This document shows, piece after piece, positions 11,670 through 58,242 of a stretch of 64,000 bases of DNA. Below the pieces are notes generated by a model that had not been told where the DNA came from, made no database searches, and was given only the letters and a program-made list of their open reading frames with translations. Numbering within the stretch: the stretch's first letter is position 1; each line of letters starts with the position of its first letter. Location of the stretch: contig LBRL01000001.1 in NCBI GenBank assembly GCA_000991405.1, forward strand, positions 3,744-67,743, given 5' to 3'. The translations under genes were made by a program, and so were the position numbers. The DNA is from Candidatus Nomurabacteria bacterium GW2011_GWD2_36_14 (GTDB lineage: Bacteria; Patescibacteriota; Minisyncoccia; Phycocordibacterales; UBA9973).

Positions 11670-11746
11670 TGAGCAGTAGGTAGTAAGGTCTGTGTATCTT
11701 GCTACTTGCTACATTCTACATACTTCGAAATTTATATTATATAAAT

Positions 11747-12652
11747 ATGGCAAACAGGCACCTTTCACGTTCAATTGTTCTTCAGACACTCTTCGAGTGG
11801 GATTTTGCTGTTGAGAAGGATACCACCCCCGAGGAGATGCTCGAGCGTAATATACAAGAATTTGGCCCAGGTCTTGATGACTCTCACTTTATGGGTGAGA
11901 TATTTCAGGGTATCATAAAGAAAAAGGTAATTATAGATGAGATTCTTGAGAAGGCTGCTCCTGACTGGCCTATCGACAAGATTTCTATCATAGATAGGAA
12001 TATTCTTCGCCTAGGTTTATATGAACTTCTTTTTGGTGATAGAGAGCAAGTGCCTCCCAAGGTTGCTATCAATGAAGCTATCGAGCTTGGAAAAAGTTTC
12101 GGTGGAGAGAATTCTAGTCGTTTTATAAATGGAGTTCTAGGTGGTGTTTATAAGGAACTCGGCGAACCTGGTAAGGATGATGTAGGTACCAAGAAGAAGC
12201 ACAAGCACTTTGAAACCGACCCTGCCAAGTTCCCTATAGAGAAGAAGGCCGGCGCTGTGGTATATGCTATTAAGGATGGCCACATTTATTTTGCTTTCGT
12301 TCACGATGTCTTTGGATATTGGACTTTATCTAAGTGTGGAGTTAAAGAAAATGAGAGTGAAGAAGATGCAGCAATAAGAGCGATTAAAGTAGAGATGGGA
12401 GTAGATATAAAAATCAAAGAACTTCTTGGAAGAAGTGAATATATTGCAACTCATCCTGAGCAAGGCAAGATTCGCAAGCAAGTCTCATTTTTCTTAGGAG
12501 AAGGAGAATATAAAGAGTTGGTACTAGAGAAAGAAAATGGTGGGCTCGATGGTACAGAGTGGTTCCCAATGGAAGAAGTTGCCAATTTGAAAATTTACGA
12601 CAACATGATTCCACTTCTGACAAAGGCTGTAGAAATATTAACAAAAGAATAA
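11747..12652 (+). CDS. nusB: Transcription antitermination factor NusB with a ~150-aa C-terminal Nudix-like extension
   Basis: The N-terminal LSRSIVLQTLFEWDF...ILRLGLYELLF...INEAIELGKSFGGENSSRFINGVLG is NusB. The C-terminal GVKENESEEDAAIRAIKVEMGV is a degenerate Nudix box. The start was moved to the ATG at 11747. Confidence 0.8.
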   Translation: MANRHLSRSIVLQTLFEWDFAVEKDTTPEEMLERNIQEFGPGLDDSHFMGEIFQGIIKKKVIIDEILEKAAPDWPIDKISIIDRNILRLGLYELLFGDREQVPPKVAINEAIELGKSFGGENSSRFINGVLGGVYKELGEPGKDDVGTKKKHKHFETDPAKFPIEKKAGAVVYAIKDGHIYFAFVHDVFGYWTLSKCGVKENESEEDAAIRAIKVEMGVDIKIKELLGRSEYIATHPEQGKIRKQVSFFLGEGEYKELVLEKENGGLDGTEWFPMEEVANLKIYDNMIPLLTKAVEILTKE

Positions 12653-12660
12653 TTAATTTT

Positions 12661-13356
12661 ATGATTGATTTTTCCCAATTTGAAAAAAAGACAAAAATAG
12701 TTTTTAAAGACAAAAAGCTTCTCGAGCAAGCGTTTATTCACCGTTCCTATATCAATGAGAATAGTGGAGGAAAACTTTGCCACAATGAACGTCTAGAATT
12801 CCTAGGTGATGCCGTCTTAGAGCTTATCGTAACTGACTATTTATACAATAAATATCCCGATAGGGATGAAGGCGAGCTGACTGCTTATCGCTCTGCTCTT
12901 GTAAATGCAATCATCATAGGTGAGATTGCATTATCTCTAGGTATGAATGATTACCTTCTTTTGTCGAAAGGTGAAGCCAAGGACATCGGCAAGGCTCGCA
13001 GTTATATACTAGCCAATACTTATGAAGCATACGTAGGAGCCGTATATCTGGATCAAGGATACGATATAGCTCGTGATTTTATTGCAAGTACTTTATTTGG
13101 TAAGATCGACGACATTGTTGCACAGAAGCTATGGCGTGATGCCAAGAGTCTTGTTCAAGAGAAAGCCCAAGAATATATCAACGTTACTCCCTCATATAAA
13201 GTTATAAATGAAGTTGGTCCTGATCATGACAAGCATTTCACTGTCGGTATTTTCTTTGGAGAGGATAAAATAGCAGAAGGTAAAGGTCACTCCAAGCAAG
13301 AAGCTGAGCAATCGTCTGCCAGAGCAGCATTAGAAGCTAAGAATTGGCTTGATTAA
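12661..13356 (+). CDS. rnc: Ribonuclease III
   Basis: The signature is ERLEFLGDAVLELIVTDYLY, followed by a C-terminal dsRBD. The start was set at the ATG at 12661, after the nusB stop. Confidence 0.9.
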   Translation: MIDFSQFEKKTKIVFKDKKLLEQAFIHRSYINENSGGKLCHNERLEFLGDAVLELIVTDYLYNKYPDRDEGELTAYRSALVNAIIIGEIALSLGMNDYLLLSKGEAKDIGKARSYILANTYEAYVGAVYLDQGYDIARDFIASTLFGKIDDIVAQKLWRDAKSLVQEKAQEYINVTPSYKVINEVGPDHDKHFTVGIFFGEDKIAEGKGHSKQEAEQSSARAALEAKNWLD

Positions 13357-23916: not shown

Positions 23917-23944
23917 GATAAAATAAATAAAACGACCTCATTTG

Positions 23945-24020
23945 CTTTGTTGCAGGTTCCGGGTGCTCGGTCAATGTAGAATTACTACATATCCCTCGCA
24001 TCCTCACCTGCGCCTCGCAT
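23945..24020 (+). repeat. GC-rich ~75-nt element (copy A) between the KH gene and trmD; candidate structured RNA
   Basis: It matches the reverse complement of 58141-58214 at ~85% identity. The outer stem gcaggt...acctgc and the inner hairpin atgtag-aatta-ctacat are visible. It stands out by GC content in an AT-rich spacer. Confidence 0.5.
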
Positions 24021-24067
24021 CTGGGGTCGTTTTCTGTATTTTATTGAATTCGTGGTATATTGATTTT

Positions 24068-24805
24068 ATGCGATTCCATGTAGTAACACTTTTCCCTGAA
24101 ATGTTTGACTCTTATCTAGGAGGGTCTATTTTAGGGCGGGCAATAAAGGAGAAGAAGATTTCTGTTTCTTTTGTGAACCCTCGTAAATTTGTAACAGGCA
24201 AATATAGAAAAGTTTGGCCAGATGGCAATGTATCCCTCCAAGTAGACGAGCGTCCTTATGCCGGAGGTCCAGGGATGGTCATGATGGCAGAGCCGGTTAT
24301 CAAAGCGGTGGAATCAGTGTTGAAAAAAATTAAGAATTACGAATTAAGAATTAAGAATGGAAAAGTTAAAACTAAACAGCAAACACCAAAAAGCAAGGCA
24401 TTGATTATAAATTTTATTCCTTCCGCCGAGAAGTTTACGACAGCAGTTGCCAAAAGTATTTCCAAGAAATACACAGACGTTATTTTAATTTGTGGACGTT
24501 ATGAAGGTATTGATGCTCGAGTTGATAAAATTCTTAAAACTAAGAAGTATTCCATAGGGGACTATGTGCTGACAGGAGGCGAAATTCCCGCTATGGTTTT
24601 GATTGATTCTGTCTCCCGACAAATAGACGGAGTCTTAGGTAACTTTGATTCTCGCGAAGAGGAAAGAGTCTCTACCAGCGAGATATATACTCGTCCTGAA
24701 GTACTGATTTATAAAAACAAAAAGTATAAAGTTCCCAAGGTTTTATTATCTGGAAATCACAAAGACATAGAAGATTGGAAAAGTTTGACAAAAAGTGTTA
24801 AATAG
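24068..24805 (+). CDS. trmD: tRNA (guanine37-N1)-methyltransferase
   Basis: MRFHVVTLFPEMFDSYLGGSILGRA and LICGRYEGIDARV. The start was set at the ATG at 24068. It carries a lysine-rich internal insertion. Confidence 0.9.
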   Translation: MRFHVVTLFPEMFDSYLGGSILGRAIKEKKISVSFVNPRKFVTGKYRKVWPDGNVSLQVDERPYAGGPGMVMMAEPVIKAVESVLKKIKNYELRIKNGKVKTKQQTPKSKALIINFIPSAEKFTTAVAKSISKKYTDVILICGRYEGIDARVDKILKTKKYSIGDYVLTGGEIPAMVLIDSVSRQIDGVLGNFDSREEERVSTSEIYTRPEVLIYKNKKYKVPKVLLSGNHKDIEDWKSLTKSVK

Positions 24806-25106
24806 GATAGGATGAAATCCAGATTGAATAGATTGAGTTATGGCAAATCAATCCTCGTTTATTAAGGTTTTAGCATACAAAAGTGTTAAACAATATCATT
24901 GCCAGTAATTATAAATAAAAAATCTAAATAAGGTTTGGTCACCTTGTTGTTTTTTGCGTTTTAACTTTATTAATAGATTAAAACGAAGGCATATATTTAA
25001 AATTTATGAGTAGGTGTGGGCGCGCCGAAGCGTAACGAAGTGGAGCGGAGAGGGCTAAGCGAATAAATTTTAAATATACGCCGAAGTTGTAATCCAAATT
25101 ATTCAT

Positions 25107-40596: not shown

Positions 40597-40623
40597 AATT
40601 CTACTAGACAGGACCTAGTCGAT
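40597..40623 (+). repeat. Degenerate copy (22/27) of the REP-like hairpin ccgactagg-caaga-cctagtcgg
   Basis: tctactagacaggacctagtcgatttt, compared with the canonical copies at 42031 and 42737. Confidence 0.5.
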
Positions 40624-40661: not shown

Positions 40662-42041
40662 ATGGAAGGATTAAATAAAAATACTCCAAAAGAAACAATC
40701 TCAGAAAATAACAGTAATCTTAAAAAGAAAGAAAAACAAATTTCAATTATTGAAATTGATGGTATTAAAATTGAGGCTCAAAAAGAATATTTTGAATATC
40801 CTGAATATATACAAAAAGAAAGTGGTGTTATTGGATATGATAGAACTATAATTGATGACAAATCATTATTTAATATTATAAACAATATATGTAAAAATAA
40901 GGGCATTGATCTTTTAAATGAGGGAGCTTTTGATTTCCATTCTTTGAAAGAAAAGATTATAAATCAATTTTCTACTTTTGTCTTAGACGAAGATCATCGT
41001 CTCAATGCAACTCCTGAATTGATTGAAATGTTTGGTGGAATGAAAAAAGAAGTACCTTCTATTTTTAGAAAAGTAGAAGAAATAATGAGAGAGTTACTCA
41101 AAGGTTTACTTTTAACATTTTCTAATGGAGAATATCCAAATAAGTGCTTTACTCACCAAATGGGTGCAGATTATAATAGAAATCGACGAGATGAATTTAA
41201 ACAAGATCTTGTGGAGAATAAATTTTTTGTTCATAAAATTTATGATATTGATTATGTAAAAGAACAAACCGACAAAAAAGGATTTGATCATACACTATTT
41301 AATGCTACTGGAGGTCTTGAATCATGGAATACTATAAAATCAGATTTGGTAATTTATGACAATACAGGGGAAGAAGTTGAGGCTGGAATGATTGCTAAGC
41401 TTGGTTCCCCTAAATATTTTGAAGGCATAAAAAATGGAAGTTTGTTTGCGTGTACTCCTAAATCAGGCTTTAATGTTGATACTGGAAAATTTTTCTATTC
41501 GCATGAAGGTGGGTTAACAGATCCAGTACCATCTTTTGGATTTTCAATGAAAAATAATATTTTTTTTCAAGAATATTTAAATAAATCATTAGATATATAC
41601 ACAAAAGAAATTAAAGGAATAGATTGGAAAGAATTAGAAGGTGGGGGTATTAACTCTATCGTTCAAGAATTAGTTTTGAGTGATTCTACGGTGCAAGAAA
41701 TAATTTATAAAAAACAAGGAGATAAAGAATATATTAAGGTTGAAAAATATGATGATTCTATTATAAGAGCAGTTAAAAACGTAGTAGAAAAAATAGAAGA
41801 AGATCACGGTATAAAATTGAATGATTACTTAATAAGTTCAGATGTTGTGGGGGATATAATTAGTTCCATGAATTCTAGAAGTGATCGTGAGAAACGCCTT
41901 CCTGTTTTTATAGGTAAAGATGATATTCCACAACTTTGTTGGGGGCACGCTTCTTTCTGTCATTTTATGAGTTCTAAAGGGTTCAATTTTATTAGATTCA
42001 AACATGCAGATCATTTGCCAAATAAAGATAAAACCGACTAG
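40662..42041 (+). CDS. Hypothetical protein (459 aa, no recognisable domain). Its stop codon lies inside a REP-like hairpin
   Basis: It is a long ORF with balanced composition. No motif is recognised. It ends with the TAG embedded in the hairpin at 42031-42060. Confidence 0.5.
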   Translation: MEGLNKNTPKETISENNSNLKKKEKQISIIEIDGIKIEAQKEYFEYPEYIQKESGVIGYDRTIIDDKSLFNIINNICKNKGIDLLNEGAFDFHSLKEKIINQFSTFVLDEDHRLNATPELIEMFGGMKKEVPSIFRKVEEIMRELLKGLLLTFSNGEYPNKCFTHQMGADYNRNRRDEFKQDLVENKFFVHKIYDIDYVKEQTDKKGFDHTLFNATGGLESWNTIKSDLVIYDNTGEEVEAGMIAKLGSPKYFEGIKNGSLFACTPKSGFNVDTGKFFYSHEGGLTDPVPSFGFSMKNNIFFQEYLNKSLDIYTKEIKGIDWKELEGGGINSIVQELVLSDSTVQEIIYKKQGDKEYIKVEKYDDSIIRAVKNVVEKIEEDHGIKLNDYLISSDVVGDIISSMNSRSDREKRLPVFIGKDDIPQLCWGHASFCHFMSSKGFNFIRFKHADHLPNKDKTD

Positions 42042-42060
42042 GCAAGACCTAGTCGGTTTT
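42031..42060. repeat. REP-like hairpin aaaaccgactagg-caaga-cctagtcggtttt (copy 1)
   Basis: A 9-bp perfect stem with a 5-nt loop, and A/T runs on both sides. It is identical to 42737-42768. Confidence 0.85.
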
Positions 42061-42061
42061 G

Positions 42062-42718
42062 TTATTTATTATAATTAAGCCATTCAAAAATTTCTTTTGT
42101 GAATGATTTTTTGTTTGGAAAATATTTTGGAAAGGTTTCTTTATTTAAAATATTGTTTTGAATTCTTTCTATCCCCAAATAATCAAGATAACTACTATAT
42201 TGGTAATTGTATAAATATTCTAAGGTTTCTTTTTTATTTTTAACCCCGACTTCTTTCCAATCTTTTTGTATAAGTTTTATTGGATTTAAGTGAATATATG
42301 AAAATAAGTATTTTAAATAACGCTCTTCACTTACATGCTCTGATTTAAATTTACCTTCAAAAAGTCCACCAGTATGTTTGTATTTTTTATTATAATACAT
42401 TACATATGCAGTAGTTAATTTTTGCATAAATTTGCTTATACTGCCATCTTCTATCTGTGTTATAAGAATATGAAAATGATTAGGCATAATACAAAAAGAT
42501 CCTATTGATACTAACTGCTTGCCCCTTTCAAAATCATATGGGCTTTCTTTTACACCAAGACCAAACATTCTGAAATTATTTTCAGAATTACAAGCAAACA
42601 TAAGACCCATAAAATGAAAACAATCCTCATTGTCATGAAAGATTTTTTGTTTACTATTACCACGATTAAATACATGATAATACTCATTATTAACTAGGTT
42701 TACCTTTCTAATAGACAT
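42062..42718 (-). CDS. IS200/IS605-family Y1 (HuH) transposase of the REP-associated tyrosine transposase (RAYT) type
   Basis: YHVFNRG, the HuH motif MPNHFHILI, and the catalytic Tyr region YLFSYIHLNPIK. The gene is bracketed by identical hairpins. Confidence 0.7.
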   Translation of the reverse strand: MSIRKVNLVNNEYYHVFNRGNSKQKIFHDNEDCFHFMGLMFACNSENNFRMFGLGVKESPYDFERGKQLVSIGSFCIMPNHFHILITQIEDGSISKFMQKLTTAYVMYYNKKYKHTGGLFEGKFKSEHVSEERYLKYLFSYIHLNPIKLIQKDWKEVGVKNKKETLEYLYNYQYSSYLDYLGIERIQNNILNKETFPKYFPNKKSFTKEIFEWLNYNK

Positions 42719-42736
42719 AATTATATTATATACTTA

Positions 42737-42768
42737 AAAACCGACTAGGCAAGACCTAGTCGGTTTTT
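42737..42768. repeat. REP-like hairpin aaaaccgactagg-caaga-cctagtcgg-tttttt (copy 2)
   Basis: It is identical to copy 1 and lies directly upstream of proS. Confidence 0.85.
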
Positions 42769-57349: not shown

Positions 57350-57963
57350 ATTTATATCTTAGCAGAAAAAGGACTTTGAAGCGAAGGTAAATAAAAAAAC
57401 GAATAAATCTGATATTAACAAAATTTAATCGTTTTAGTTAAAAGGGAACCCCCTAAATATTATGAAGTATGGTTGGTCATAACATACTTCAGAATTTTCA
57501 TAAGGCTTTTCGTTTAGCATAACAGTAGGATAATTATCCCACGATTCCAAATAAAATGTTTCTTTTTTCATGGAATAAATATTATTTATCATTTATATAC
57601 TTTTTTAACACCCAACTTGTTAGTCTGAGCATTAAAATAAAATATATAATAAGAAAAAATAAGGTAAAATATGCCCAAAAATAATTTTGCCCCATAATAT
57701 ATTATTTTTTAATTTTACAAATATAACTGTCAATATAATGATACAGGGGATTAAACATGTATGCAAATAATTTTGTGTATCACAAGTTACTACATGACCG
57801 CGAGTACGCTTCTCGACTCTTACAGAGTCAGTACACCTTTTCCATTCGTGAGTACACTCATATGGAAAAGGTTTTCTCGTCCTGTACGGAAAGCATACAA
57901 ATGCTTTCCTAGGGTCCACCCAAGAAAAAAGGCACGCTTTCGCGTGTCTCTTTTTTCTACGGG

Positions 57964-58037
57964 TGGACCCTACAGGACTCGAACCTGCCACCTCCTCATT
58001 GCAAATGAGGCGCTCTAGCCAGATGAGCTAAGGGCCC
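57964..58037 (-). tRNA. tRNA-Ala (anticodon UGC)
   Basis: The reverse complement GGGCCCTTAGCTCATCTGGCTAGAGCGCCTCATTTGCAATGAGGAGGTGGCAGGTTCGAGTCCTGTAGGGTCCA has the G3:U70 identity pair and the anticodon loop TTTGCAA. Confidence 0.85.
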
Positions 58038-58140
58038 TTAAATAATTAATAATTAAGAATTAATAATTAAGATACACATATATTACCTTATTTTATAATT
58101 TTTGCAAGACTTTTTATAAAACAACAGAAAAGTATTAGGT

Positions 58141-58214
58141 ACGAGGCGCAGGCGAGGATTGCGACCAAGATGTAGTAATTCTACATTGCGGGAGCAACCG
58201 GAGCCTGCAACAAA
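58141..58214 (-). repeat. GC-rich ~75-nt element (copy B, reverse orientation) between mntH and tRNA-Ala; candidate structured RNA
   Basis: Its reverse complement aligns with 23945-24020. It shares the identical inner hairpin atgtag-aatta-ctacat. The outer stem is gcaggc...gcctgc, compared with gcaggt...acctgc in copy A. Confidence 0.5.
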
Positions 58215-58242
58215 GTAGATGATATTTTTATGTTGTTTTATT

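Follow-up and report, generated by a model that had tools for sequence, protein, structure and literature searches.

A low-copy family of palindromic hairpin elements nested in terminator-type repeats of Nomurabacteria and Paceibacteria

Two GC-rich copies of one palindromic element, here called copy A and copy B, lie in the 64-kb stretch of DNA from Candidatus Nomurabacteria bacterium GW2011_GWD2_36_14 that we analysed (contig LBRL01000001.1; the whole stretch is called the window below). Both belong to a low-copy dispersed family of palindromic hairpin elements in Nomurabacteria and Paceibacteria of the Candidate Phyla Radiation (CPR). The core of copy A (23938-24028, + strand) is an imperfect hairpin of ~92 nt between a KhpA-like KH gene (stop codon 23914-23916) and trmD (ATG at 24068), and the core of copy B (58131-58222, - strand) is located between an Nramp transporter gene (stop codon 58243-58245) and the putative promoter of tRNA-Ala. 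Including the outer arms, the whole structures cover ~23918-24044 and ~58111-58242. Our tentative interpretation, to which we give slightly less than an even chance, is that of a transcribed palindromic element similar to ERIC, SPRITE and bcr1 that makes up the folded inner part of intrinsic terminators or of hairpins at transcript 3' ends and whose loops are recognised by a specific factor.

An earlier sequence-only reading had described two ~85% identical GC-rich copies at these loci, and alignment confirms them with 86% identity across ~95 nt. That reading had the location right, but its length of ~75 nt was too short, as the core measures ~92 nt and the structure extends further. Likewise, the distance of 28-29 nt to the preceding stop codon holds for the coordinates used then, whereas the conserved core begins 21-22 nt past the stop codon and the outer stem directly past it. 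The covariance-model search that had been proposed was run on the window and on related sequences and returned the two window copies together with further homologues. Model R1 recovered copy A with 104 bits (E 5e-28) and copy B with 104.6 bits (E 4e-28); with filters off it found no third copy in the window. The predicted folds of both copies have z-scores of about -5 against dinucleotide shuffles (copy A: -5.3, minimum free energy -37.8 kcal/mol; copy B: -5.0). The apical 19-mer CAATGTAGAATTACTACAT is common to A and B and occurs exactly twice in the window, as does each of the two arm motifs, compared with chance expectations of 0.02-0.45 for these motifs. The two copies also differ in a compensatory manner. 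The change from T-A (U-A in RNA) to C-G in the GCAGGY/RCCTGC stem had been noticed before and is real, and two further changes of this kind exist, from GG..CC to CC..GG beside the apical hairpin and from G-C to A-U in the basal UGC/GCA stem. Chance similarity, or the coincidence of two ordinary unrelated terminators, would explain the presence of T-runs and nothing else. Given a motif expectation of 0.02 against two observed occurrences, model scores above 100 bits and dozens of covarying homologues, we rejected this explanation and consider it next to impossible.

Members of the family and their gene contexts

The proposal of a repeat family was borne out by ~35 distinct relatives in Nomurabacteria/Paceibacteria genomes and metagenomes. 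A scan of species genomes with the apical 19-mer gave true copies in 7 metagenome-assembled genomes (MAGs) with 1-2 copies each, and a scan of metagenomes with a loop-degenerate pattern gave 32 true loci. The covariance model then added copies without the exact pattern, among them one in which the apical stem AAUGUAG/CUACAUU is replaced by AACGUAC/GUACGUU and pairing is preserved. Since the search patterns fix the apical stem, the sampled family is biased towards close sequence relatives. Between one and three copies were found per sampled genome (MAGs and contigs), the maximum of three being on linked contigs, and the family spans lineages in which RpoB is just 65% identical. Rfam 15 contains no match to the window at gathering thresholds and nothing relevant at E-values up to 1-10 for the element or four homologous loci, and literature searches for RNA motifs or palindromic intergenic elements of CPR/Patescibacteria gave nothing relevant. 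SRP RNA, 6S RNA, Y RNA, known ribozymes and ribosomal-protein leaders were rejected, as they gave no Rfam match and their signature motifs are missing too. A viral origin was rejected as well, the scan of IMG/VR with the apical 19-mer having yielded one chance match without flanking similarity. The same applies to an integron attC site: GTTGCAG does not fit GTTRRRY, and there is neither an RYYYAAC partner nor an integron context.

In all of the ~11 distinct gene contexts the element is co-oriented with the surrounding genes. The context of copy A, rpsP-KH-element-trmD-rpoBC, is found at ~25 loci. At four others (L017, L041, L030 and L040; such numbers denote related contigs or genomes fetched for comparison) the element lies 27-53 nt before the rpoB ATG, past a conserved leader and its terminator-like hairpin. 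The remaining copies are situated between nusG and rplK (L038), between tmk and dut (L039), between ftsW and folD (L037), behind rpsO (L047), behind a sigma factor gene (L044), between Nramp and tRNA-Ala (copy B of the window) and among hypothetical neighbours (L019, L025), so that the majority of copies lead into trmD-rpoBC or rpoB. For the two window copies, the flanking genes confirm the co-orientation reported earlier, of A with KH and trmD and of B with Nramp and tRNA-Ala. At locus L044, two copies of a longer variant (809-900, - strand; 1603-1693, + strand) bracket an ECF-type sigma-70 gene (918-1535) in inverted orientation, and the second of them bears the compensatorily changed apical stem.

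The contexts could suggest an attenuator or leader of the RNA polymerase operon that controls read-through into trmD-rpoB-rpoC (or into rpoB or rplK), in which case copy B and the scattered copies would be secondary. The attenuator and RNase III site between rplL and rpoB of E. coli is a model for such a function. In line with it, 4-5 of ~12 independent contexts would be accounted for in a genome of an estimated ~800 genes: the ~25 loci directly before trmD-rpoBC, the four loci before rpoB, which include the distant lineage L040, and the one between nusG and rplK. However, trmD seems to have its own promoter past the element, rpoB already has a separate conserved leader of ~150 nt, this operon has a plain terminator or no element at all in many relatives, and other copies stand beside the unrelated genes Nramp, tmk/dut, ftsW/folD and rpsO. 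We regard control of the polymerase operon as improbable.

Fold, covariation and functional strand

The fold of the core is a single long, imperfect hairpin in which small internal loops, consisting entirely of pyrimidines, separate four helices. In an alignment of 34 distinct sequences, pairing holds in 92.1% of 952 cells, and both sides have changed in 18 of the 28 pairs, in agreement with the selection on structure that had been postulated from the two window copies. The covariation score is 0.372 compared with 0.133 in shuffles, and none of 500 shuffles reached the observed value. The underlying alignment (A4) was fitted to the model and its sequences were selected by pattern, both of which lean towards structure. 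Still, slid controls gave covariation of only 0.07-0.08 with 24-47% of cells paired, and a hand alignment shows the same covariation picture, which argues that the signal is not an artefact. In the second copy of L044 the apical stem covaries as well. A long variant from a distant subgroup (L039, L040, L047 and both copies of L044) forms a hairpin of ~125 nt; of its 43 pairs, 13 are compensatory among the five sequences, and it possesses an additional covarying basal stem of ~17 bp (16-17 bp). Overall, these data support a structured element that is conserved and under selection for pairing.

Several observations distinguish the two strands. Among the pairs of the core, G·U/U·G combinations outnumber A·C/C·A combinations 62 to 26, and 29 of the 34 sequences have kept one U·G wobble; the functional strand is therefore the one that is co-oriented with the genes. 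GC skew is positive over the whole window, yet copy A lies on the + strand and copy B on the - strand, so that orientation follows transcription rather than replication. This favours a constraint on RNA over one on single-stranded DNA. The sequence-only reading had named a lack of covariation and random orientation as results that would speak against it; in the family, covariation is present and orientation is always gene-sense.

As in structured RNAs, the stems are more variable than the loops. In columns outside the search pattern, unpaired positions are more conserved than paired ones (0.49 versus 0.78 bits). The internal loops UUU/CUC, UCC/UC and UC/UC and a bulged U are all pyrimidine, and their identities are conserved. 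Such conserved pyrimidine loops point to specific recognition, not merely to stability, as far as can be judged from the sequences. A mechanical open reading frame (ORF; 23942-24805, + strand, 287 aa), the longest one for trmD, starts with TTG within copy A and reads through the element. We rejected a coding potential of copy A, as this ORF is an artefact: the orthologues differ by indels, and the real start of trmD is the ATG at 24068.

The core as interior of terminator-type hairpins

An A-rich 5' arm and a T-rich 3' arm enclose both copies. The 5' outer arm of copy A (23918-23937, + strand) is A-rich with a CGACC clamp, and 18 of its 20 positions can form Watson-Crick pairs with the 3' outer arm, which contains a T-rich tract and resembles the tail of a terminator (24025-24044, + strand; GGTCGTTTTCTGTATTTTAT). 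A terminator/promoter scan called a terminator-like site here (24012-24027 plus CGTTTTCTGT, + strand). In copy B, the 5' outer arm (58223-58242, - strand; AATAAAACAACATAAAAATA) stands directly past the Nramp stop codon and forms Watson-Crick pairs with 58115-58134 at 17 of 20 positions; the 3' outer arm and its T-rich tract (58111-58134, - strand; TACTTTTCTGTTGTTTTATAAAAA) are missing from L055, L057 and L058. The outer stem reads CGACC.../...GGTCG and then TTTTCTGTATTTT in copy A, and TAC and then TTTTCTGTTGTTTT in copy B, and the T-rich tracts past the copies are GGTCGTTTTCTGTATTTT (A) and TACTTTTCTGTTGTTTT (B). The previous statement that the element has no T-run was wrong, and a lack of relation to terminators is not supported either, as an A-tract/GC-stem/T-tract hairpin encloses each copy.

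The outer 20 nt are specific for each locus, typically with 16-19 of 20 Watson-Crick pairs, an A-tract before and a T-tract after the core. G·U and A·C combinations are about equally frequent in the outer stems (41 versus 45), which are therefore strand-symmetric unlike the core. In most copies the outer stem provides the G+C-containing stem followed by a U-run that characterises terminators, whereas neither the core alone nor the long-variant copies of L039, L040, L044 and L047 do so. None forms a simple hairpin with a loop of 3-8 nt, the 'loop' being the structured 92-nt core. A small hairpin, GCCUCG/UGGGGU, was considered as an alternative terminator and rejected as incidental, since it pairs only in a subset of copies.

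The junction of KH and trmD could be sampled free of pattern bias via TrmD homologues. Two loci found in this way carry the element (L052, L060), and three others show a conventional terminator hairpin there, likewise built with A-tract and T-tract but with 4-nt loops in place of the core (L050, which is RAAC4_OD1_1, L054 and L061). Plain terminators at the same place in relatives that lack the core identify the element as the interior of a terminator-type hairpin: the core sits at the loop position of an A-tract/GC-clamp/T-tract repeat, a type of repeat that these AT-rich genomes use as bidirectional-type intrinsic terminators.

The units downstream appear to have promoters of their own. An extended -10-like motif (TGGTATATT, 24053-24061, + strand) ends 6 nt before the trmD ATG and is kept as TGGTATAKT in orthologous loci; it was read from the sequence, and the consensus promoter scan did not find it. 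As a putative separate promoter of trmD, this motif would make the mRNA leaderless or short-leader; no Shine-Dalgarno sequence is present between it and the ATG. In relatives, motifs of the kind TGnTA..T stand directly at the start codons of adjacent genes, which likewise suggests leaderless or very short-leader mRNAs. For tRNA-Ala, a promoter-like TTGCAA-16 nt-TAATAT (58080-58107, - strand) is kept in the window, L055, L057 and L058, with the form TTGCAA-16/17-TAAKAT among relatives. From these motifs we infer that A and B are placed at the 3' ends of transcripts. Copy B would accordingly belong to the 3' end of the Nramp transcription unit and not lie within the tRNA unit.

If our interpretation as the interior of a terminator is correct, the element would be transcribed as the 3' end of the upstream mRNA, which is rpsP-KH for copy A and Nramp for copy B. 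The core would fold first and draw both outer arms together, and the whole structure of ~135 nt would then terminate transcription at the T-tract. A long rod-like 3' hairpin would be left behind, insulating the next promoter-driven unit (trmD-rpoBC, rpoB, tRNA-Ala or rplK) and probably protecting or processing the 3' end of the transcript. The conserved pyrimidine loops would imply a specific recognising factor in addition to stability. Fold, covariation, strand, orientation, nesting, patchiness and vertical descent are observed in the family; termination, protection or processing of the 3' end and recognition by a protein are what the sequences suggest.

Several points weigh against this interpretation, besides the bias of the search patterns. 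The conservation of the loop sequences exceeds what a terminator or stabiliser needs. The copies of L017, L041, L030 and L040 follow a separate terminator-like hairpin just before the start of rpoB, and the long-variant copies of L039, L040, L044 and L047 have no T-run, so that these copies are not simply terminators. The outer stem of copy B pairs better on the antisense strand. Moreover, relatives free of the element are without any terminator between Nramp and tRNA-Ala, which argues that none is required there.

Alternatively, the core could represent a new class of protein-recognised structured CPR RNA, a rod of four helices with conserved U/C loops whose role would go further than termination, either as a stable small RNA that mRNA 3' ends release or as an attenuator through which a factor controls whether transcription of ribosomal-protein operons continues into trmD-rpoBC or rpoB. 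This is possible, though we would not expect it. A related reading, which we judge unlikely, holds that the core (with or without the basal stem) is a stable small RNA or a component of a ribonucleoprotein, excised from the operon transcript and acting in trans via protein binding or base pairing; the terminator context would then be its mode of expression only. The loops being more conserved than the stems, the kept U·G wobble and bulged U, the conservation between lineages as distant as their RpoB indicates, and copies away from gene 3' ends are all in favour of such an RNA. So is the long variant, whose covarying basal stem of 17 bp joins the 5' and 3' ends without a T-run and resembles a processing stalk. 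A cut by RNase III in the ~20-bp outer stem would be a possible route of excision. Near-continuous double-stranded RNA of ~20 bp at the base, as in an RNase III stalk, is indeed found (16-19 of 20 positions in the outer repeats, 16-17 bp in the long variant), although cleavage is only potential, and the window contains an RNase III gene (rnc, 12559-13356). On the other hand, copies of the same genome have not been kept identical but differ (86% identity of A and B), the element resembles no known RNA family in Rfam, and a consensus scan gave no convincing promoter of its own; TAAAAT-like motifs in the A-rich arm were rejected, as they are indistinguishable from composition. Furthermore, close relatives lack the element at the three orthologous sites examined and in 20-kb flanks, and this patchy distribution argues against an indispensable RNA. 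Of the possibilities listed in the sequence-only reading (a 3'-UTR stability or processing element, a small RNA gene, a repeat family), the repeat family is established and the other two remain among the live readings. Immediately upstream of the RNase III gene and overlapping it is a gene for a NusB-NUDIX fusion (11699-13356 for the pair, + strand); the same pair occurs in L050 and L054.

RNase III signals of phage T7 and the rplL-rpoB site of E. coli are irregular conserved sense hairpins between cistrons that create defined stable 3' ends, one of them just before rpoB. The element has no sequence similarity to them, a T-tract and a separate promoter come after it in most cases, and cleavage is only putative here.

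Filled and empty sites and the relation to mobile hairpins

Three orthologous sites are polymorphic for presence and absence of the element: KH|trmD, Nramp|tRNA-Ala and the site between leader and rpoB. The first is filled in >20 related loci and empty in L050, L054 and L061. The second is filled only in the window; four relatives whose Nramp is 74-88% identical have no element and lack ~110 nt at this place. In L055 the 5' outer arm of copy B is identical, and the core and 3' arm are gone. L057 retains CATCTAC...CGTATAG, which may be what is left of the element's base after deletion of the interior, and L061 has a similar possible remnant before rpoB. Judging from these sequences, ancestral presence followed by loss is tentatively favoured over gain at the Nramp site. 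The third site is a slot before rpoB formed by an AT-rich inverted repeat. L017, L030, L040 and L041 have the element there, the window has an unrelated GC-rich insert (24985-25080), L059 and L061 have short fillers, and the slot of L060 is empty. The Nramp|tRNA-Ala spacer of L056 (11326-12816) contains three opposite-strand genes, including one for an HTH/SocA_Panacea protein, and this site appears to be an insertion hotspot.

At KH|trmD, divergence of the core correlates with that of TrmD (rho 0.42-0.46), and trmD DNA changes faster than the core (nucleotide identity 0.72 versus 0.84), which together indicate vertical inheritance under constraint. The family persists vertically, is sporadically deleted or exchanged for a plain terminator and has rarely spread to new hairpin sites.

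The presence/absence polymorphism could also result from selfish hairpin DNA similar to MITEs or REPINs that a Y1 (HUH) transposase, for instance a RAYT-like protein, moves in single-stranded form; the structure would then be maintained for the sake of transposition, with the RNA fold as a by-product. Indeed, a gene for a RAYT-like Y1 (IS200-like) transposase is present in the window (42062-42718, - strand). Its product matches Pfam Y1_Tnp with 39 bits, above the cutoff, and the best NCBIfam match, REP_Tyr_transpos, is below the cutoff. An identical hairpin, ACCGACTAGGTCTTGCCTAGTCGGT, with A- and T-tracts stands on both sides of the gene (42036-42054 and 42743-42761), and a degenerate copy lies at 40602-40620. 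In L017, L041, L050 and L061, the homologous gene also stands between hairpins with the CTAGGTCTTGCCTAG core, whose outer stems differ. These genomes thus possess machinery that acts on hairpin DNA. Further arguments for selfish DNA are the occurrence of the element in at least 11 different contexts, the REP hairpins of the RAYT-like gene being likewise nested in locus-specific A/T-tract stems, and a second, unrelated family of GC-rich inserts in the same kind of AT-rich inverted-repeat slot. However, the RAYT-like gene was rejected as the cognate transposase, since the palindrome that flanks it (CTAGGTCTTGCCTAG) is a different REP from the element. REPs and REPINs reach tens to hundreds of copies per genome, and here we count 2 in 64 kb, 1-2 exact-core matches per species genome and no more than three on linked contigs. 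A comparison of the filled copy B site with the empty site of L055 revealed no target-site duplication at the junctions, and short ATC(T) repeats at the core ends vary independently. Orthologous copies stay conserved and co-diverge with the host gene, and the mismatches are systematically pyrimidine-pyrimidine with their identity kept, unlike in decaying inverted duplicates. Strand asymmetry, an orientation that tracks transcription and not the replication strand, and conserved loops all argue against purely selfish DNA, which we consider quite unlikely. Still, selfish DNA, a small RNA or ribonucleoprotein and an rpoBC attenuator are not mutually exclusive.

In its overall properties the element resembles small transcribed intergenic palindromic repeats, yet by sequence it is a member of none of them. 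SPRITE is a dispersed intergenic repeat with a terminator-like motif in its fold and a bias to gene ends, for which a role at the RNA level has been suggested (PMC3184786). The element is of similar size, dispersed in intergenic regions and terminator-like, whereas SPRITE is a repeat family of a Firmicute without sequence relation to it. SPRITE copy number is high. In comparison, 1-3 copies of the element were found per sampled genome, its T-tract and outer stem are locus-specific and not part of the repeat, and its core with conserved loops is kept across many species. ERIC/IRU (~127 bp) and bcr1 of the Bacillus cereus group, imperfect palindromes of ~100-155 bp, lie in intergenic regions that are transcribed together with the gene upstream; they have a reported influence on mRNA stability and vary in distribution between relatives, and bcr1 shows compensatory base changes that preserve RNA structure (PMC3184786). 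Terminal inverted repeats, a flanking TA and target duplications characterise ERIC-type repeats, and 5-bp direct repeats characterise bcr1 (PMC3184786), whereas the element is without duplication, strictly sense, far less numerous and nested in terminator hairpins. With REP/REPIN-RAYT systems it shares extragenic hairpins and vertical persistence beside a single-copy Y1 transposase, a RAYT-like gene being carried by these genomes. However, it is not a doublet of the CTAGGTCTTGCCTAG REP, its copy number is tiny, and its arms differ systematically, with pyrimidine loops in both arms, which indicates a single-strand constraint. Taken together, low copy number, sense-only orientation, nesting in terminators, conservation of loops over stems and concentration upstream of trmD-rpoBC and rpoB set the element apart from SPRITE, ERIC, bcr1 and REP.

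CPR/Patescibacteria have tiny genomes and almost no described non-coding RNA biology, and the element adds a well-supported structured element with strong covariation that is outside Rfam. It illustrates that conserved GC-rich modules nest within terminator hairpins and that such slots are filled, emptied and refilled over evolution. If the loops bind a factor, the element could reveal a coupling of ribosomal-protein and RNA polymerase operons or a way of shaping mRNA 3' ends. In addition, the covariance model can be used to annotate these sites and thereby avoid false ORF calls such as the one at 23942-24805.

Further conserved elements were noticed close to the two copies. The rpoB leader of ~150 nt (24812-24965, + strand) starts with CAGATTGAATAGATTGAGTTATGGCAAATCAATC and ends with a hairpin and T-run (AAGGTTTGGTCACCTT GTTGTTTTTT). 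It is conserved in >25 related loci with 70-91% identity, has strong TTGACA/TATAAT-type promoters just upstream in L017, L030 and L059, and has no match in Rfam; it may be an undescribed leader/attenuator or a small RNA. The GC-rich insert that occupies the slot before the rpoB ATG in the window (24985-25080, + strand) is purine-rich, ~55 nt long and enclosed by a near-perfect 20-bp AT-rich inverted repeat (GGCATATATTTAAAATTTAT...ATAAATTTTAAATATACGCC). Among the fetched loci, its only homologues (84% identity) lie in the S16|KH spacer of L046 and L049. Homology of this insert with the element was rejected, as they share short matches only, and it represents a separate family. Past tRNA-Ala (57964-58037), a string of GC-rich hairpins, for example GGAAAGCAUUUGUAUGCUUUCC and GACUCUGUAAGAGUC, extends over ~57775-57962 (- strand) and gives no match in Rfam. 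A mechanical ORF (57632-57991) reads through it. The string is kept with compensatory changes in L058 and L056 and absent from this place in L055 and L057, and it may be another unannotated structured RNA.

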